Below the pieces are notes generated by a model. That model searched no databases. It worked only from the letters and a program-made list of their open reading frames with translations, and was not told where the DNA came from. Below are positions 51,913 to 60,745 of a DNA stretch of 64,000 nt, one piece after another. This stretch comes from Prochlorococcus sp. AG-355-B18 (GTDB lineage: Bacteria > Cyanobacteriota > Cyanobacteriia > PCC-6307 > Cyanobiaceae), in assembly GCA_003280965.1 (NCBI GenBank), contig QCDI01000003.1:64001-128000 (forward strand), in the 5' to 3' direction. The translations under genes and the position numbers were made by a program. The number at the start of each line of letters is the position of its first letter. The first letter of the stretch is position 1.

Positions 51913-53499
51913 ATGAGTCAAACATCTTTAAAAAAAGAACGAGATCCCTCAATATTAATTTTAGATTTTGGATCTCAATATTCTGAATTGATTGCAAGAA
52001 GAATAAGAGAAACTAATGTTTTTTCTCTTGTAGTAAGTAACTGTATTTCAATTGAGGACATTCTTAAAATTAATCCTAAAGGGATAATTTTAAGTGGGGG
52101 CCCAAATTCTGTATATGACCAAAATTCTCCTAAATGCGATGAAAAAATTTTTGATTTAGGAATTCCTATTCTTGGTATATGCTACGGAATGCAATTAATG
52201 GTTAAAGAACTTGGAGGCTCTGTCTCTTCAGCCACAAAAAAAGCTGAATATGGGAGGGCACCAATAAATATAGATTCAGAGTGTGACCTATTCTGCGATG
52301 TAGAAGATAAATCAATAATGTGGATGAGTCATGGTGATTCAATTAATTGTTTGCCGGATGGATTTAATAAAATTGCTCATACAGAGAACACACTCCATGC
52401 TGCGATTGCAAATGATAGAAAAAAATTATTTGGCGTACAATTTCATCCTGAAGTTATTCATTCAGAGTATGGGATGACGGTAATTAAAAATTTTGTTTAT
52501 AAAATCTCAACTTGTGTTGCTGATTGGACAACAGAAACCTTTTTAGAAGAAACAATTCCCAGGATAAAAGAACAAGTTGGCAATAAGAAAGTTTTGCTTG
52601 CCTTGTCAGGCGGAGTTGATTCTTCAACTCTTGCTTTTTTACTTAATGAAGCAGTTGGAAATCAGCTTACATGCATGTTTATTGACCAAGGCTTCATGAG
52701 AAAAGGTGAACCAGAATTTTTGATGAACTTTTTTGACAAGAAGTTTCATATAAAGGTTGAATATATTAATGCTAGGGAAAGGTTTATTGCCAAATTAAGG
52801 GGGATTACTGATCCAGAACAGAAAAGGAAAATTATTGGTGAAGAATTTATAAGAGTATTTGAAGAAGAAAGTAATAGATTAGGACCTTTTCATTACCTAG
52901 CGCAAGGCACTCTTTATCCTGATGTTATTGAAAGTGCTGGTACTAATATTGATCCCAAAACGGGAGAAAGAATAGCTGTAAAAATAAAGAGTCATCATAA
53001 TGTGGGGGGATTACCAAAAGATTTGCAATTTAAATTAGTTGAGCCATTAAGAAAACTTTTTAAGGACGAAGTCCGAAAATTAGGAGCTGCATTAGGTTTG
53101 CCAGATGAAATTATAAAAAGACATCCATTCCCAGGACCAGGGTTAGCGATAAGAATTTTGGGAGAAGTGACTAATGAAAAACTCGATTGTTTAAGAGATG
53201 CAGATTTGATTGTGAGAGAGGAAATAAAAAAAGCTGGTCTTTATGATGATATTTGGCAAGCATTTGCAGTTTTGCTACCGGTTAAAACTGTAGGAGTTAT
53301 GGGTGATAAAAGAACTTATTCATGGCCAATTGTTTTACGTTGTGTATCTAGTGAAGATGGTATGACAGCAGATTGGTCAAAAATTCCCTTTCAGGTTTTG
53401 GAGAGAATTTCAAATAGAATAGTAAATGAAGTAATTTTAGTAAATAGAGTTGTTTTTGATATTACAAGCAAACCTCCTGGAACTATTGAGTGGGAGTAA
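51913..53499 (+). CDS. guaA: GMP synthase (glutamine-hydrolysing)
   Basis: [37 protein letters not shown]. Confidence 0.98.
53482..53499 (+). repeat. attL core: 18-bp direct repeat formed by the guaA 3' end
   Basis: ACTATTGAGTGGGAGTAA, identical to 59942-59959. Confidence 0.93.
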
Positions 53500-53535
53500 A
53501 AAAATTAGCTAAAACCTTGTTATAGTCTAAAAAAA

Positions 53536-53559
53536 TAGGTTTCACGTAGGTTTCACGTG
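53536..53559 (+). repeat. Left subterminal repeat pair 1
   Basis: TAGGTTTCACG-TAGGTTTCACG-TG. Confidence 0.92.
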
Positions 53560-53596
53560 GAATATTGGTAACCTATTTGCAACGCTTTTTGATGGC

Positions 53597-53620
53597 TAGG
53601 TTTCACGTAGGTTTCACGTG
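53597..53620 (+). repeat. Left subterminal repeat pair 2
   Basis: Exact 24-bp copy of 53536-53559, 61 bp downstream. Confidence 0.92.
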
Positions 53621-53766
53621 ACGCTATAAGCACTTCTCTACAGAGAAATCAAGGAATGAATTTTTCTCTACACTTTTATTTCTCTGAAAGTACCGAAATA
53701 TAATGTAAAAAAAACTTCTTTATTAGTAATATAGTTTCTAAAGACGGTACATAGCCAATTTTACCG

Positions 53767-56256
53767 ATGCTCGATAAAGAATGTATTAGGTCAATAAAGC
53801 GTTTTCAAGATCCTTTTATTCGTAGTTTCATTTTTGATTCGAATTCTTGGTATGAGTTTGCAAGTAAAGTCAATCAACTTGGTAATGGAAGAGAACAAAA
53901 TAAAACAAAAGGAGATATCTTTGAATTATTTACTTGTTTATATCTTGCATCAGATCCAATTTTTTCATCCAAACTGGAAAGTATTTGGCATCATTCAAAT
54001 GTTCCATATCCCATAGTTGAAAAACTTGATTTACAACTTCCTGAAATTGGAATTGATTTAATTACAAAATCAAAAGATGGAGATATTTGGGCGTTTCAAT
54101 GTAAATATCATTCTGATATTAGTAAAAATGTTTCATACGAGGAGGTCTCCACTTTTTTCTCAATTACAAATAGACCTCAAACATTTAATAATATTACTCA
54201 TAGGATAATTTGTTCTTCAACATACGAGGTTAGTAAAAAAATAAGAAATGCTGAAAAAAATAAACTAGGTTATTTAACTTTTTGTGAATTTAGTCAACTT
54301 GGTAAAGAAGAGTTCTATGGTTTTCATTCCCTTTTGAAAAATGAAAAGATTAGTCTTGAGAGTTATGAACCAAGAAATCATCAGATAAATGCTATTGAAA
54401 AATCAATAAGATATTTTTCTACTGAATCAAGGGGTAAATTAGTTCATCCTTGTGGTGCTGGCAAAAGTTTAACTGGGTACTGGATATTTCGACATTTAAG
54501 CGTAAATAACACATTGATTGTTGTTCCTAGTCTTCAATTAGTCAGACAGACTCTAAAAGCATGGGCAAGAGAATTATTGTGTGATGGTGTAGAAATCGAT
54601 TGGATAGCGATATGTAGCGACGACGATGTTAGAAATGTAGATGATCCGGCGATGAATATTTCAGATATAGGAATTGAAGTTAATACAGATGTAGAGGTTA
54701 TAAGTAAATTTTTAACAAAAAAAACTAATAATAAAAAAATCGTAATTACCACATATCAAAGTGGAAAAGCGTTAATCAATGCAGCACAATTCACTAATTT
54801 CAATTTTGAACTAGGAATTTTTGATGAAGCTCATAAAACTGCAGGAAATAAAAATAAGCTCTTTGCTCAACTTCTTTATGATGAAAATATTTTTATAAAG
54901 AAAAGATTATTTATGACAGCTACTGAGAGGGTATTTAGAGGTGATTCAGATGAAACTATATCTATGGATGATGAAGTTATTTATGGAAGAATAGTTGATG
55001 AATTTTCTTTTAAATCTGCTCTAGAGCAGAAACCAAAAATTCTTTCTGATTATCAAATATCAACGACAGCTACATTTAAAAATGAAATTAAAGAATTGAT
55101 AGAAAATAATGAACTTCTGAAAGCAGGAAATAAACAATGGACATTTGAGGCAGATGCATCAACTTTTGCAGCTTTAATTACATTAAGAAAAGCAGTTCAG
55201 GAATTAAAAGTAAAACATGTAATTTCATTTCATCGAAGTATTTCAAGAGCTAGAGAATTTCAACAATTAAATGATGCAGTCAATAATTTTGGTACTAAAT
55301 TTGGGTATATTCATTCTTATCATATTAATGGAAAAAAAGGCACAGGAAAAAGGTCTGAAATAATTAATAGATTTATTTCTGAAGAACCAAGTTTAATTAC
55401 TAATGCTCGATGTTTGACGGAAGGAGTTGATATTCCTGAAGTCGATGCAGTTCTTTTTGCTGATCCAAAGGATAGTACAGTTGATATTGTACAGGCGGCA
55501 GGAAGAGCAATGAGAGTAAGTGATAATAAGGAATTAGGTTATATTCTTTTACCTGTGATGCTTGATGAAGAAGAAAATAATTCAATCGAGGATAGTGCCT
55601 TTAAACAAATTATTAAGGTGGTTTCAGCTTTAGGTATGAGCGATGAAAGGATTGTTGCAGAATTTCAAGAAATTGCTCAAGGTAATAATCCAACAGGGAG
55701 AAGAATTGTTGATATTGAGGAAGTTTTTAGTTCAATAAATTTAGAAAGCTTGTATTCGAATATAAACTTTAGAATTTGGAACAGATTGAGTTTCGCATCG
55801 AAATTTATAAATTTAAATCAAGAGATATTAATTGCTGAAATAGGAAAATCTGGTGATAGATGGAAGCAAGCTAATTTTCCACTCAAAATATGGGAAAATT
55901 ACTTTGGAGGAGATTTAAAACTTGAGAAATATATCCACTTGTATGAAGTCAATAGAAACGGTTCTCTCAACAAAAAAGTCAGTACAAAGATAGTAAAGGT
56001 TAAAAGTCAAAACTATAGAGTTGAATTAGGAGCAGTTGCAGGAATTAATTATCCTGATTCAGGTAGACCTATAGGTATCTTTAAAAAAATTTCCCAAAGT
56101 GAATTTAGATATCATATATTTATGCCAGACGATCCCATGCATCCAAATTTACTTGGTTATTTAAATATTAGGGGTAAAGGTTATGCGACATCTCTTAAAG
56201 GAGCTTTAGTTTTTTTAAATCAACTTGAATCACTTTGGCCAGATTGTCCTGTTTAG
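53767..56256 (+). CDS. Mrr-like PD-(D/E)XK nuclease-SF2 helicase fusion (Type ISP-like motor) with an uncharacterised C-terminal domain
   Basis: KGDIFE, GIDL...FQCKY nuclease; PRNHQ, PCGAGKS, DEAH, MTATER, CLTEGVDIP, DIVQAAGRAMR helicase motifs; no MTase motifs. Confidence 0.85.
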   Translation: MLDKECIRSIKRFQDPFIRSFIFDSNSWYEFASKVNQLGNGREQNKTKGDIFELFTCLYLASDPIFSSKLESIWHHSNVPYPIVEKLDLQLPEIGIDLITKSKDGDIWAFQCKYHSDISKNVSYEEVSTFFSITNRPQTFNNITHRIICSSTYEVSKKIRNAEKNKLGYLTFCEFSQLGKEEFYGFHSLLKNEKISLESYEPRNHQINAIEKSIRYFSTESRGKLVHPCGAGKSLTGYWIFRHLSVNNTLIVVPSLQLVRQTLKAWARELLCDGVEIDWIAICSDDDVRNVDDPAMNISDIGIEVNTDVEVISKFLTKKTNNKKIVITTYQSGKALINAAQFTNFNFELGIFDEAHKTAGNKNKLFAQLLYDENIFIKKRLFMTATERVFRGDSDETISMDDEVIYGRIVDEFSFKSALEQKPKILSDYQISTTATFKNEIKELIENNELLKAGNKQWTFEADASTFAALITLRKAVQELKVKHVISFHRSISRAREFQQLNDAVNNFGTKFGYIHSYHINGKKGTGKRSEIINRFISEEPSLITNARCLTEGVDIPEVDAVLFADPKDSTVDIVQAAGRAMRVSDNKELGYILLPVMLDEEENNSIEDSAFKQIIKVVSALGMSDERIVAEFQEIAQGNNPTGRRIVDIEEVFSSINLESLYSNINFRIWNRLSFASKFINLNQEILIAEIGKSGDRWKQANFPLKIWENYFGGDLKLEKYIHLYEVNRNGSLNKKVSTKIVKVKSQNYRVELGAVAGINYPDSGRPIGIFKKISQSEFRYHIFMPDDPMHPNLLGYLNIRGKGYATSLKGALVFLNQLESLWPDCPV

Positions 56257-56257
56257 G

Positions 56258-57622
56258 TTATCTACAAATAAAAAGATATTCTGAATCAAACGATATTTCT
56301 TTATTGAGAGCAGTGCGGTTAAGTTTACTATGAGAAAATTTCCCCACGGAATCTATGTCGACTTTTGAAAAAAAATTTAAAGCAATCTCTCTGATTTGAT
56401 CAATCGTCATAACTCTTGGATGTGCATTTTTCTCTGATGCATATGGTGAGTAAGAGAGGACAAGAGGTAACTTTTTTTCAGATATTTTCGAAAATAGTAA
56501 TTGGAATGCTTTTGGAGCTTGATTGCGAATACAAAAAGGTGATTGATGACGATTCTTTCTATATATCCCACGACTAAGCATGGTTTCCCCATGTGCTTTG
56601 TTTGATGAAATTTCTGGATCATCTCTCAAAGATAGAGTTTCAAGAACATGATAAAAACGACTGTAATGATCTCTTGTGTATGGAGGATCTGCGTAAATAA
56701 TGCTTTCATTGCACTCTTTAGATGAAAGGTAATCTAAGTAATCAGATCTAATTGCTTCGTGATTAAAATTTGCTGAATAATTTAAGCAAAATTTTTCAAG
56801 TGAATATAAAAAAATCTTAGTTATTGATTTATTTCTATCTTTTGATGTTTGATTGTATAAAGACTTTTTCACTTTACCTTCTTTATCACGAGGTCTTAAG
56901 GGTTGGGCAAAGTGTTTGCCGACAGTATTAACGACTTCACTTGCAGTTGCTAAAATAGCAGCAGTGAATAAATCTTTTTCTAATCCTATATAGTTTTCAG
57001 CCATATCTAATAAAGCATCAATTTCTGCAGCTTGTTTGAAAGAGAAATAAATACCACCAAAATGTCTTAATGTCATCGTAGATAAATAATTTTCTTTAGG
57101 AAATTTTTCAATTTGTTTCCAACAATTATTCATTGCTATTTGAAAATCATTTTTAATATCGTTTTTTGCGGTCATTAATGATCCGCTTTCAATCATCATT
57201 GCAAGTTGTTCTGTATCCCCATTTTTAGCCTGACTCATCAAATTTTCCTCAATTTCAATTAATGGTTCAGCTACGATTAATGATTTATGCTTATGGATAT
57301 TTTTAAGTTGATTTTCTAACTTATTTTTATTTTTTTTTATAAAAATTTTGTTATCACTTAGTAGTGCTGTGCACAATATGCGAGAGTATTCTTGGATATC
57401 AATAGCAGTTACTTTGCGCGTTTTTCCTAGCCAAGAGGAGACAGTACCTGATCCAGCAAACAAATCACATACAGGGGCATCTTTAGAGGTAATTTGATTT
57501 AAGTTAGATTCTATTTTTTCTAAAATTCTTAATTTACTTCCAAGATAATGAATAGGTCGCCATGGCTCTTGATCCTGAATTAATTTTGTTTTCCCTTTAT
57601 TAGATAAATGTTTATATGACAC
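56258..57622 (-). CDS. Alpha-class (D12-like) DNA adenine methyltransferase
   Basis: IHYLGSK, DLFAGSGTV (motif I) before IYADPPY (motif IV), YSRFYHVLETL; GTG start. Confidence 0.88.
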   Translation of the reverse strand: MSYKHLSNKGKTKLIQDQEPWRPIHYLGSKLRILEKIESNLNQITSKDAPVCDLFAGSGTVSSWLGKTRKVTAIDIQEYSRILCTALLSDNKIFIKKNKNKLENQLKNIHKHKSLIVAEPLIEIEENLMSQAKNGDTEQLAMMIESGSLMTAKNDIKNDFQIAMNNCWKQIEKFPKENYLSTMTLRHFGGIYFSFKQAAEIDALLDMAENYIGLEKDLFTAAILATASEVVNTVGKHFAQPLRPRDKEGKVKKSLYNQTSKDRNKSITKIFLYSLEKFCLNYSANFNHEAIRSDYLDYLSSKECNESIIYADPPYTRDHYSRFYHVLETLSLRDDPEISSNKAHGETMLSRGIYRKNRHQSPFCIRNQAPKAFQLLFSKISEKKLPLVLSYSPYASEKNAHPRVMTIDQIREIALNFFSKVDIDSVGKFSHSKLNRTALNKEISFDSEYLFICR

Positions 57623-57666
57623 TATTTTTTACTTTCCCAAAGTTAATGTTGCCCAATTTTAATACC

Positions 57667-57713
57667 TAATTAATATTCTTATATTAATTACTTTTTTAAA
57701 TAAATTAAAAAAG
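57667..57713. promoter_or_regulatory. Two adjacent perfect inverted repeats in the divergent MTase promoter region
   Basis: TAATTAATAT-tctt-ATATTAATTA (57667-57690) and CTTTTTTAA-ataaa-TTAAAAAAG (57691-57713). Confidence 0.4.
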
Positions 57714-57739
57714 ATTTATAAACTAAAAATATCTTTCAA

Positions 57740-58873
57740 GTGCACGATCCCATACAACAATTAGGTTTAATAAATCATGAGAAATATTCTCTGAAAGAGA
57801 ACGATAAATTATTTTTAGGGGAAGGTAGTCAATTATCTGCTCTAATACATGGAGATAATGATGCAGTAATTGATATAGCTAGTGAATATTTGAAAAATCA
57901 AGTTAGGTGCATTTATATTGATCCACCTTATAACAACCTTGAAGTTTATGAACATTATGAAGATCGCGATTCATATGCTGTGTGGATTAAAAAGTTGACT
58001 AATCATATTGCCCGACTTTATAAGTTATTACGTGATGACGGCAGTCTTTGGATATCTATAGATGATCGACAAATGCACTATCTCAAAGTAGCTATGGATG
58101 AGATTTTTGGTAGAAATAATTTCATTTCAACTATAGTTTGGGAGCATAGAAAAACAAGAGAAAATAGAAAGGTTTTTTCAAATAATCATGAATATATTCT
58201 TGTATACGCAAAGGATGCTGAAATTTTTAAAAAGTGTATGAATAAACTTCCTTATAATGATGAGATAAAAAAAAGATTTAAAAATCCTGATAATGATTAT
58301 CGCGGTCCATGGCAGTCAATATCTTTAAATGTACAGGCAGGACATGCTACAAAAAGTCAGTTTTATGATCTTATTGCACCAAATAGCAATATTCATAAAC
58401 CTCCCGCTGGTAGATGTTGGGTTTATTCAAAACTCAAAATTCAAAAATTAATTAGTGATAATCGCATTTGGTTTGGGCAAGATGGTAATGGAGTTCCGAG
58501 ATTAAAGAGATTCCTCAACGAAATAGATACATCCTTAACTCCGCATACTTTATGGAGAGCTGATGAAGTGGGAACTACTGAAAATGCAAAGAAAGAAATA
58601 TTAAAATTGTTTCCAGAAGAGCCGGTATTCGATACACCGAAACCTTTTCAATTGATTGATAAAATTCTCAAAATTGCTGCTAATCCTGGTGATCTAATCT
58701 TAGATAGTTTTTTAGGTTCTGGAACAACTTCCTCAGTTGCGATTCAAAATAGAATGAGATTTGTTGGAATTGAGAGAGGAAACCATATATATTCTCACTG
58801 TCATAAACGTCTTAAGCAAATTTTAAAAGAATATGATGCGCAAGTAAAATTCTTCGAACTTGTAGAAGAATAA
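57740..58873 (+). CDS. Beta-class N6/N4 DNA methyltransferase, Type III Mod-like but short
   Basis: IYIDPPYN (motif IV) before TPKP and DSFLGSGTT (motif I); FKNPDNDYRGPW segment; GTG start. Confidence 0.88.
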   Translation: MHDPIQQLGLINHEKYSLKENDKLFLGEGSQLSALIHGDNDAVIDIASEYLKNQVRCIYIDPPYNNLEVYEHYEDRDSYAVWIKKLTNHIARLYKLLRDDGSLWISIDDRQMHYLKVAMDEIFGRNNFISTIVWEHRKTRENRKVFSNNHEYILVYAKDAEIFKKCMNKLPYNDEIKKRFKNPDNDYRGPWQSISLNVQAGHATKSQFYDLIAPNSNIHKPPAGRCWVYSKLKIQKLISDNRIWFGQDGNGVPRLKRFLNEIDTSLTPHTLWRADEVGTTENAKKEILKLFPEEPVFDTPKPFQLIDKILKIAANPGDLILDSFLGSGTTSSVAIQNRMRFVGIERGNHIYSHCHKRLKQILKEYDAQVKFFELVEE

Positions 58874-58874
58874 A

Positions 58875-59426
58875 TTATTCCCAGCCATAAGGAAAGAACT
58901 TTCTACATCCACCCGAATCAACAAAGAATCCTTCTGTAGCATCTATAATAGTTTTCATTTCTTTTGATAATTTTTGTCTTCCAAATTCACTATCTTTAGT
59001 AAAAGGAATCGAATAATAATAACCTTGTGAAAGTGATGGCATTAATGCTCTTAATTTGCCAGATTTCCTATCTTTTTTTGAAGTTGCTCTCCCTAATTGA
59101 TTCCCCACAAAATTCATAAAAGGTCCTGTCCTTATCTCCTTTGTATTTTTTGTTCTTTCCTGATAGGTTTTTTCTTCGTTTAACAATTCAGGTGAATATG
59201 ATCTTGCGGTGTAATACTGACCACCATATCCATTCCAGATACCTACATAGAAACCTAAAGAAGGTTGATTTTTATAATTTAGAGATCCTATACCACCACC
59301 GGAACCAGTATATTTCAAAGTTATAGTTACATCTGGTTCTACTTCACTTGTAAGTGTGCAAATTGAGTCTGCTTTAACTAAAGGAATAACACCTAATAAA
59401 AGTGGCAAAAGTAGTAAGAGTTTCAT
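58875..59426 (-). CDS. Hypothetical secreted protein
   Basis: Signal peptide MKLLLLLPLLLGVIPLVKA; two Cys. Confidence 0.75.
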   Translation of the reverse strand: MKLLLLLPLLLGVIPLVKADSICTLTSEVEPDVTITLKYTGSGGGIGSLNYKNQPSLGFYVGIWNGYGGQYYTARSYSPELLNEEKTYQERTKNTKEIRTGPFMNFVGNQLGRATSKKDRKSGKLRALMPSLSQGYYYSIPFTKDSEFGRQKLSKEMKTIIDATEGFFVDSGGCRKFFPYGWE

Positions 59427-59785
59427 TACCTACGACGACCTAAATCAATTAACTTAGTTGTTCTTTTGCAAATATCAACTTCTATCCATTCCATATTTGC
59501 AGTATGAGTTGGCATATCCTCTTTTGACGCAACTGTATATTTACACTCATTGAAGATATCTGTTTGATAAACCCAATACCAAGGATATTTGTAATGAGTA
59601 TTACGTTCAATCCTTTTTGTAAGCATTTCCCAATAGGTGTCATTAACTAATTTAATTGCTGCTCTTTCGCCTTCAGTACATTCACCTTGCGATTCTGGGC
59701 AGGTATATTTGTGCCTTTTATATTGTTCTGTATTAGCAGGAGTACTAAAACCAAATATCAAAAACAGAAGAAATAGTTTTTTCAA
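59426..59785 (-). CDS. Hypothetical secreted Cys-containing protein
   Basis: TTG start, signal peptide MKKLFLLFLIFGFSTPANT, four Cys; TAATG coupling to the next gene. Confidence 0.7.
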   Translation of the reverse strand: MKKLFLLFLIFGFSTPANTEQYKRHKYTCPESQGECTEGERAAIKLVNDTYWEMLTKRIERNTHYKYPWYWVYQTDIFNECKYTVASKEDMPTHTANMEWIEVDICKRTTKLIDLGRRR

Positions 59786-59847
59786 AATTATTTTTTATAT
59801 TAATTTTAATTATCCTGTCAATATGACAAATATTACTCCTCAAACTA

Positions 59848-59872
59848 TAGGTTTCACGTGGGTTTCACGTAG
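59848..59872 (+). repeat. Right subterminal repeat pair
   Basis: TAGGTTTCACG-TGGGTTTCACG-TAG, same orientation as the left pairs. Confidence 0.92.
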
Positions 59873-59881
59873 AAAAATTTG

Positions 59882-59890
59882 TGTTATAAT
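59882..59890 (+). promoter_or_regulatory. Extended -10 promoter element pointing across attR
   Basis: TGTTATAAT equals the TGnTATAAT consensus. Confidence 0.45.
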
Positions 59891-59941
59891 CAGGTCAAAC
59901 CCATTGATATAACTGTCTTTTTTATTCACCTCTTTGGAGGG

Positions 59942-59959
59942 ACTATTGAGTGGGAGTAA
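59942..59959 (+). repeat. attR core: duplicate of the guaA 3' end
   Basis: ACTATTGAGTGGGAGTAA; extends to 21 bp with one mismatch (GGG vs GGA). Confidence 0.93.
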
Positions 59960-60031: not shown

Positions 60032-60745
60032 ATGAGCGAGATTATTAAACTAAGTCGATCTACTGTTGAGAAATATCTTAGTTGTCCAAGATGTTGTGTA
60101 CTTGATAAAAAATATCAAATAAAACCGCCCTCATTACCATTTACTTTAAATATAGCTGTCGATAATTTATGTAAAAATGAATTTGATCACTACAGAAGAA
60201 TTCAGGAGCCACATCCATTATTTATTGAACATGGCATTGATGCAGTTCCTTTTAAACACAAAAATTTAGAACGTTGGAGAAGTAATTTTCAAGGAATAAG
60301 ATATAAGTCAATTGAACATAATTATGATTTTGGTGGAGCTGTGGATGATATTTGGCAGAAAAAAAATGGTGATCTTATCATTATTGATGTAAAAGCAACA
60401 TCTAGAAATAATTTTGATTGGTCTGAGACTTTTAATAAGTACGAATATGCAAAAGCTTATAAGAGACAATTAGAAATGTATCAGTGGTTATTTAAAAAGA
60501 ACGGATTTAAAGTTGCCAAAGAAGCTTATCTCTTATACTTTAATGGAAAAAAAAATGAAGAGGTTTTTAATAATCAATTAAATTTTGATGTACATTTAAT
60601 TAGATTAGATTGTTCTACATCATGGGTAGAAAATAAGATAATTGATACGGTCAAATTATTGCGTTCTGATATTTTTCCCAAACCGTCATTAAATTGCGAA
60701 TACTGCAATTATTTAAAAAAACGTTGGAAATTATCAATAACTTAA
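60032..60745 (+). CDS. PD-(D/E)XK superfamily nuclease (RecB/Cas4-like) with terminal CxxC pairs
   Basis: LSRS...CPRC, GAVDDI, IIDVKAT, QLEMY, CEYC. Confidence 0.82.
   Translation: MSEIIKLSRSTVEKYLSCPRCCVLDKKYQIKPPSLPFTLNIAVDNLCKNEFDHYRRIQEPHPLFIEHGIDAVPFKHKNLERWRSNFQGIRYKSIEHNYDFGGAVDDIWQKKNGDLIIIDVKATSRNNFDWSETFNKYEYAKAYKRQLEMYQWLFKKNGFKVAKEAYLLYFNGKKNEEVFNNQLNFDVHLIRLDCSTSWVENKIIDTVKLLRSDIFPKPSLNCEYCNYLKKRWKLSIT

Follow-up and report, generated by a model that had tools for sequence, protein, structure and literature searches.

Gene layout of the locus

We analyzed 64,000 nucleotides of contig QCDI01000003.1 (positions 64,001 to 128,000) from Prochlorococcus sp. AG-355-B18, whose genome comprises 1.58 Mb with 31% GC. 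All coordinates refer to this whole stretch, the window. Three adjacent genes form a putative restriction-modification (RM) system. The first encodes a fusion protein of 829 amino acids (aa), a putative restriction enzyme composed of an Mrr nuclease, a superfamily 2 (SF2) ATPase and a B3 domain (53767..56256, + strand). It is followed by a 454-aa alpha-class N6-adenine-type methyltransferase (MTase) of the D12 family (56258..57622, − strand) and a 377-aa beta-class, Mod-like N6/N4 MTase (57740..58873, + strand). The stop codons of the 829-aa and 454-aa open reading frames (ORFs) lie 1 bp apart, and the starts of the two divergent MTase genes are separated by 117 bp.

An earlier note on this DNA had described an 829-aa protein with an Mrr nuclease and full SF2 motifs, converging at 1 bp on an alpha MTase that diverges from a beta MTase. 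Pfam, the alignment to LlaBIII described below, motif positions and motif order, and the ORF coordinates bear out this account of the genes as stated; the B3 domain at residues 677-829 and a 21-bp direct repeat flanking the locus had been missed.

Seven proteins of the locus were scanned with Pfam, PADLOC and NCBIfam. None of the seven matched HsdS or HsdM in these scans or PLD in Pfam, and PADLOC-DB 2.0.0 yielded partial matches only. A promoter scan of the locus was uninformative, returning 25 matches with 36 ± 7 expected by chance.

Assignment of the MTases rests on Pfam and motif order, and for the 377-aa protein also on PADLOC. The 454-aa protein matches MethyltransfD12, and its motif I at position 53 precedes DPPY at 312, the alpha order. 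The 377-aa protein matches N6_N4_Mtase and has DPPY at 61 ahead of FLGSGT at 324, the beta order; its top PADLOC model is MTase_III. The DPPY motif is indicative of N6-methyladenine (m6A) formation. The alpha MTase retains 108 of the 112 columns that are at least 95% conserved in 27 relatives, and both motifs are kept in all 15 listed members of each MTase cluster.

The front of the 829-aa protein is an intact Mrr nuclease and SF2 motor

Pfam places Mrr_cat_2 at residues 62-166, ResIII at 200-386 and Helicase_C at 473-584 of the fusion. The Mrr-family nuclease domain (PF13156, E 3.3e-16) spans approximately aa 32-190 (53860..54336, + strand), with its motifs at E53, E93/D97 and Q111-x-K113. 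The SF2 ATPase/translocase and the helical region after it cover aa 200-676 (54364..55794, + strand) and terminate at W-N-R-L-S-F. Residues 32-638 align with the Type ISP enzyme LlaBIII (E 4.6e-48), and in this alignment E53, E93, D97, Q111 and K113 correspond to LlaBIII positions 38, 74, 78, 92 and 94. In LlaGI, which is described as more than 95% alike to LlaBIII in the nuclease and motor domains (PMC3553950), E38, D74, D78, Q92 and K94 were mutated, and D74, D78 and K94 were reported as critical (PMC2790908). Position 93 of the fusion is glutamate, not aspartate, as in 118 of 120 family members. The helicase motifs are complete (Q-motif at 206, Walker A GAGKS at 230-234, DEAH at 353-356 and QAAGRAMR at 576-583), and residues 357-676 retain 86 of 88 columns that are at least 95% conserved in 61 relatives. 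The nearest named relatives of the window helicase are Prochlorococcus records.

Among the 120 best matches to the 829-aa query, only two cover the whole query, and both are 829-aa forms of the fusion. The other relatives share the W-x-R-L-S-F junction (aa 671-676) and diverge beyond it. Past this junction, a helical tail of ~105 aa is found in 76 of the 120 aligned rows (regex count) and HA repeats in most others; INT-repeat tails occur in more distant Mrr-SF2 loci. Relatives are present in 27 of 284 other genomes of the genus, and in the five closest of these the DNA match to the window ends at 55797.

This stand-alone family is nearly free of neighboring MTases. In 88 of its loci there was no match to B3, PLD or the alpha MTase, and the beta MTase gave two weak matches. 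Amino-MTase motif IV was found in 2 of 137 flanking ORFs, counted over those 40 loci that extend 2.5 kb or more to each side, and a cytosine-5 (C5) MTase motif in a single ORF across the 88 loci, both by motif scan and not by full annotation.

Across the family (L163-L250; P0126-P0243) the junction is fixed and at least four tail types occur: helical, HA repeats, INT repeats and B3. The helical tail (P0128 aa 680-778; L168:5519-5839) weakly resembles phage-integrase SAM-like domains (Pfam E 0.038; Atlas 0.91). A few stand-alone members sit on viral contigs. Others adjoin large defence-like gene sets (L114:11814-16705, L116:10352-17911, L127:755-14203), which by eye resemble Type III mod/res, BREX and a C5 MTase cluster.

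The C-terminal tail is a B3 recognition domain of PLD nuclease origin

Beyond the junction, residues 677-829 (55795..56253, + strand) form a B3, BfiI-type DNA-recognition domain. Residues 676-829 have 422 matches among 1.84 billion protein representatives. In 110 of the best 150 of these matches the protein is 340-450 aa long, and 109 of the 110 carry the HxK and GSxN motifs. PLD-type Pfam matches were obtained for 12 of 14 scanned tail relatives, many of them below the curated cut-off. A profile built from PLD C-termini, with the window left out, matches aa 677-829 at 1e-50.

An AlphaFold2 model of the tail (predicted local distance difference test, pLDDT, 87; predicted template modeling score, pTM, 0.85) was compared with 48,161 chains in a fold search. 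BfiI-C (3zi5) ranked first with Z 12.0 and a root-mean-square deviation of 3.4 over 139 aligned residues; rows 1-13 are all B3-fold chains, and in row 14 the score drops to Z 3.1. Foldseek agreed on the fold, with the LlaJI.R1 N-domain as its first match and BfiI also recovered. It was the fold search only that revealed the B3 identity, since PDB sequence searches with a PLD relative and with the B3 alignment gave no match.

The domain retains 32 of 39 consensus columns. Two of the closest relatives share three of the seven differences, a further three affect conservative or variable positions, and the last, arginine to glycine at 812, is plainly a loss. In BfiI the N-arm and C-arm are described as reading the bases and the C-loop as contacting a phosphate (PMC3973309). 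We infer, at the level of motifs, that R-W-x-Q-A-N-F and S-x-N-Y-R-x-E would be the recognition arms and that residue 812 would lie in the C-loop. The predicted arm residues R698, W699, Q701, N703, S747, N749, R751 and E753 are all kept.

Two long proteins, P0339 (943 aa) and P0360 (1260 aa), end in the same B3 domain and show no PLD match; one has a weak SLOG match.

Both methyltransferases belong to a PLD-B3/alpha/beta trio

A GTDB scan with the alpha MTase as a single protein gave no match, and an alignment-based scan found 272 relatives, of which the best 80 define the trio loci examined here. Alpha MTase, beta MTase and B3 occur together in 78 of these 80; of the two exceptions, one has no adjacent beta gene and the other is truncated where its contig stops. 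PLD and B3 share one ORF in 75 of the 80 loci, and Mrr or helicase matches are found in none of them. The gene layout of the window recurs in 29 of the 80 trio loci, including L002, L003 and L005, and in FastTree phylogenies of 20 trio loci the window's B3, alpha and beta proteins each cluster with these three (Shimodaira-Hasegawa-like support 99-100). Identity to L002 is 54% for B3, 59% for the alpha and 68% for the beta MTase.

PADLOC restriction models did not match six PLD relatives of the trio, which gave weak PLD-domain matches only. An Acinetobacter plasmid holds the same trio; its annotation lists two MTases together with a phospholipase D family protein. Across L002-L081 the trio extends over several phyla in three layouts, and the B3 arm motifs are near-invariant. 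In Bacteroidales loci, including L046, L048-L050, L054, L056 and L057, the beta MTase is ~190 aa longer (open frames of 559-578 aa). The alpha MTase has a 36% relative on a conjugative plasmid (L324:3863-9341), where it and a second D12 MTase stand beside a LlaJI-family nuclease and an AAA ATPase; the alpha-MTase family therefore also serves motor-dependent systems.

No clear shared word that could represent the recognition motif was seen upstream of the alpha gene in the 29 divergent-layout loci and the window. A site-avoidance test against synonymous-codon shuffles in 78 loci returned CATCTC as the most depleted asymmetric 6-mer (observed/expected 0.47, compared with 0.94 in control genes). 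Three points led us to reject CATCTC as the recognition site: ~2,000 words had been tested, homologous genes do not count as independent, and two copies lie within the island.

A domain swap joins the two families

By sequence comparison, the locus is a domain-swap chimera, which combines the Mrr-SF2 front of the stand-alone family with the B3 domain and both MTases of the PLD trio. The fusion occupies the exact position of the PLD enzyme in its three-gene system, and both MTases have been retained. In the course of events that we propose, a stand-alone Mrr-SF2 gene would have recombined at its junction with the PLD-B3 linker, displacing the PLD domain.

In a tree of the helicase C-terminal half, the window is nested within the helical-tail members (99/98) and is separated from its sister group by a stem of 0.28 substitutions per site (98/98). 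In the N-terminal half it groups with the stand-alone, helical-tail allele P0126 (100/100), which is 94-100% identical over aa 1-350, and the second fused cluster, P0125, carries another N-terminal half. Before aa 350 there are 161 differences between P0125 and the window, and beyond it there are 3; front halves are therefore still exchanged near motif II. The alleles are thus mosaics, in which N-terminal halves up to motif II (53767-54830 in the window, compared with P0125 and P0126) have been swapped between fused and stand-alone genes.

The fusion recurs and its reading frame is conserved

Fourteen DNA runs, drawn from seven studies, contain at least half of the sampled words of the locus. 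In each of the three DNA runs examined (X1, X3 and X7, from three studies), one of which may be the source sample, the fusion point is bridged by contigs, and one metagenomic contig covers the locus from the helicase through the beta MTase. A further locus, L132, is a 98.8% identical copy and also bridges the junction. The fusion is not an artefact, because its junction is bridged in contigs of three studies and in L132 and is present in two protein clusters with 29 and 5 members. The alpha and beta MTase clusters hold 82 members each, and the co-occurrence of the three genes elsewhere, which the earlier note had suggested checking, is found in L132, the protein clusters and the contigs of three studies. 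Near-identical B3 sequence occurs on the fusion only, with the next match at 53% (proteins >268 aa; 22 matches among 280 candidates).

Summed contig depth was mostly 5-30 over the three genes compared with 12,000-35,000 over the flanks, which suggests that the locus is rare, though depth does not give a share of cells. RNA run X15 holds short contigs on all three genes; strand and level are not shown and DNA is possibly present, and we did not count these contigs as expression. Five other RNA runs hold small shares of the sampled words.

All 13 full-length fusion alleles are 829 aa long and in frame, and the 12 variants other than the window retain all 20 checked catalytic and recognition-arm residues. 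Between the window and L132, synonymous and non-synonymous changes number 6:2 in the helicase, 5:1 in B3, 11:5 in the whole fusion, 10:9 in the alpha and 14:5 in the beta MTase. The excess of synonymous changes has binomial p values of 0.002 for B3, 4e-5 for the whole fusion, 0.002 for alpha and 6e-7 for beta; p was at most 0.002 for every part but Mrr. GC content at third codon positions (GC3) is 0.18 in the B3 region, 0.20 in guaA and 0.16 in the helicase part. Taken at the level of sequence, the view of the locus as a maintained chimera is well supported.

Proposed working of the system and alternatives

We consider it somewhat probable that the 829-aa protein is a working RM enzyme of undescribed design: a single-chain Mrr - SF2 translocase - B3 protein that arose by a natural domain swap and is paired with protection by two stand-alone MTases. 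As to how it works, we give even odds to a site-specific, ATP-dependent restriction that proceeds by translocation, the asymmetric site being protected by two m6A MTases. The B3 domain would bind an unmethylated, probably asymmetric site of 5-6 bp. Each of the two DPPY MTases, alpha and beta, would modify an adenine of one strand and so prevent host DNA from being bound; it is likely that the two strands of an asymmetric site have one MTase apiece. Site binding would switch on the ATPase and start translocation along double-stranded DNA (dsDNA), and the Mrr domain would cut off-site upon collision of two enzymes, in the manner of Type ISP enzymes, for which cleavage is described as random after collision (PMC4666363). 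The system could serve defence against cyanophage or other incoming DNA, self-maintenance of the island, or both.

Several observations weigh against this reading. In Type ISP enzymes, activation of the ATPase is reported to pass through the MTase-target recognition domain (TRD) and coupler (PMC7049714); since both are largely absent from the fusion, the coupling of B3 to the motor is the weak step of this reading. Residue 812 is glycine in all 13 fused variants, at a position where arginine is found in 80 of 85 B3 relatives, the three nearest among them. The Mrr domain alone shows 0 synonymous and 2 non-synonymous changes between the window and L132, and the selection test as a whole uses a single allele pair with small counts. 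The fusion is one rare lineage: among genomes of which many are incomplete, the alpha MTase was found in 0 of 284 others of the genus and B3, by profile search, in 0 of 400 others of the family. Across 78 trio loci, B3 similarity follows that of the alpha MTase (rho 0.43) and does not track that of the beta MTase (rho 0.12, p 0.31). Finally, the half-protein trees are midpoint-rooted and comprise 29-34 chosen rows.

The alternative that survives best keeps the same site-specificity and changes the cutting: ATP would be used for activation or short-range movement, and cleavage would occur near the site, in CglI/NgoAVII or Type III style. In its favor, B3 binds tightly and is tethered just ~10 residues past the junction, and CglI, in which B3 is known to be combined with an SF2 ATPase, is reported to cut 7 and 6/7 nt from its site (PMC5737866). 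We nevertheless regard near-site cutting as unlikely, as nuclease and motor are homologous to those of Type ISP, which cuts randomly after collision, and no likeness to the CglI-type N subunit was seen, although no comparison was aimed at it.

It is rather improbable that the fusion acts like its stand-alone relatives with another trigger, such that B3 would be a generic DNA-binding tail and the MTases would hitchhike or guard the host against incoming restriction enzymes. Relatives with unrelated tails and hardly any MTases nearby do work or, at the minimum, persist, their N-terminal halves are swapped with those of fused alleles, and G812 replaces a conserved arginine. Against a generic tail stand the retained recognition-arm residues, the excess of synonymous changes in both MTases and the linkage of the three genes across independent assemblies.

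A third alternative applies just to the MTases and can be reconciled with our preferred explanation, restriction by translocation from a recognized site: the site could be a palindrome, with the alpha enzyme acting on dsDNA and the beta enzyme on single-stranded DNA (ssDNA). An alpha and a beta enzyme are paired in this way in DpnM/DpnA, where the DpnII system divides labor between dsDNA and ssDNA. B3 domains of EcoRII-N are reported to recognize a pseudo-palindrome, CCTGG (PMC3973309). However, the folds nearest to the tail, BfiI (ACTGGG) and LlaJI (GACGC), both read asymmetric sites according to PMC1459862 and PMC3973309, which makes this arrangement quite doubtful.

That the locus is an inert relic, in which helicase insertion destroyed a PLD gene and the in-frame fusion is accidental, would suit its rarity and the lack of an integrase on the island, but is highly improbable given the 0.28-substitution stem with intact motifs, the 13 of 13 full-length alleles in frame, and a B3 region with synonymous excess and host-like GC3.

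Relation to known restriction systems

With Type ISP enzymes (LlaGI, LlaBIII) the fusion shares a homologous N-terminal Mrr nuclease with intact motifs I-III followed by an SF2 ATPase, all with catalytic residues kept. It differs from them in having no in-chain gamma-MTase/TRD, the ISP-model match ending at aa 638 and B3 serving recognition instead; protection is assigned to separate alpha and beta MTases, and the chain has 829 aa rather than 1578. The BfiI-type Type IIS enzymes and the PLD-B3 trio have the same C-terminal B3 fold, and the nearest trio loci have the same two MTases and layout, but their PLD (HxK) nuclease is replaced here by a metal-dependent Mrr nuclease and an ATP motor. LlaJI also joins B3 to an NTP motor and has two separate MTases, and its site is asymmetric and unmethylated, as proposed here (PMC1459862, PMC12707154), whereas its motor is a McrB AAA+ GTPase with N-terminal B3, its nuclease is a separate McrC-like protein and its MTases produce 5-methylcytosine (5mC); here an SF2 motor and nuclease form one chain. 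CglI and NgoAVII combine B3 recognition with an SF2-type ATPase that is required for cleavage (PMC4267654, PMC5737866), yet in those systems PLD lies on the B3 chain, the ATPase is a separate N subunit and there is one MTase, in contrast to the single chain, without PLD and with two MTases, found here. Type III systems resemble the locus in the beta MTase, which matches PADLOC MTase_III models best, and in the ResIII-type ATPase; they differ in that Res has its nuclease at the C-terminus and depends on Mod for recognition, whereas here the nuclease sits at the N-terminus, recognition is assigned to the B3 domain of the restriction chain itself and an alpha-class MTase is added.

On a tested feature in every case, the locus thus falls outside the Type I, ISP, III, BfiI-type, LlaJI-type and CglI-type systems, and the earlier note was right that no classical Type I, ISP, II or III layout fits. 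Its term 'split Type ISP' is not borne out, because the MTases are alpha and beta class and belong to the PLD-nuclease trio and the motor to the stand-alone, mostly MTase-free Mrr-SF2 family. Its premise that systems with paired MTases have no motor leaves out of account LlaJI, described with two MTases, an asymmetric site, B3 and a McrB-like NTPase (PMC1459862, PMC12707154). ATP-dependent restriction with two separate MTases, which it had proposed, emerges as the best reading and is stronger than the note knew, because the fusion carries its own B3 recognition domain.

By analogy, the enzyme may work like an ISP motor aimed as in LlaJI. PLD nucleases are described as swapping sensor tails, including HA and pseudobarrel domains (PMC12191111), and modularity is presented as a general theme (10.1101/2025.09.30.679545). 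A literature search with access to few subscription journals found no single-chain Mrr-SF2-B3 fusion. LlaJI and CglI are precedents for the logic, and in this search none was found for the single-chain architecture; the locus is probably an undescribed form of ATP-dependent RM.

The interest of the locus is bounded by its being a single rare lineage and by the presence of the B3, motor and two-MTase logic in LlaJI. If active, it would be a restriction architecture newly formed by one traceable domain swap, with both parent families known and the breakpoint mapped. Because the MTase-TRD thought responsible is missing, it would also be a minimal setting in which to test how recognition of a site turns on an ISP-type motor; a 150-aa recognition domain could then aim such a motor without an MTase-TRD, and the widespread orphan Mrr-SF2 proteins would be a sensor-swappable defence chassis with a defined junction. 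The fusion further provides an entry point to two families that are large and poorly described, the PLD-B3/alpha/beta trio and the orphan Mrr-SF2 proteins.

The genes lie on an island at the guaA 3' end

A 21-bp direct repeat that matches the guaA 3' end marks both boundaries of the island, which is 6.46 kb long. The left attachment-like repeat is the final 21 bp of guaA (53479..53499, + strand), 95% identical to the right one (59939..59959, + strand). Two copies of a tandem GGTTTCACGT box (repeat family D1) follow at 53527..53623, with undefined strand; a third D1 copy lies at 59839-59874, and the same box is found after guaA in another genome (L144). The GGTTTCACGT boxes are possible integrase arm sites. 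No integrase was found among the island ORFs, and four phage-integrase matches, two of them over the cut-off, occur elsewhere in the genome.

In 3 of 16 loci of the genus (L139, L141, L143) guaA runs straight into the sequence at window 59939 and beyond; of the other 13, two reach it across ~50 bp and one across ~400 bp, and ten run into other sequence. In two further genomes (L120, L121) the insert at guaA is a different one and carries distant Mrr/helicase relatives. Across the genus the guaA 3' end takes varying insertions (window 53479-59959; L120, L121, L134-L149), and the inserts carry tandem GGTTTCACGT boxes.

Between the beta MTase and the right repeat, two small passenger ORFs of 183 and 119 aa with hydrophobic N-termini (58875..59785, − strand) stand outside the restriction system. 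The two ORFs are also found in other islands; in L114 and L120 the stretch has 85-88% identity and the MTases are lacking. Its contig depth is far above that of the three system genes. Directly past the island, a stand-alone PD-(D/E)XK, Cas4-like gene (60032-60745) is part of the core sequence here and is also present at empty sites.

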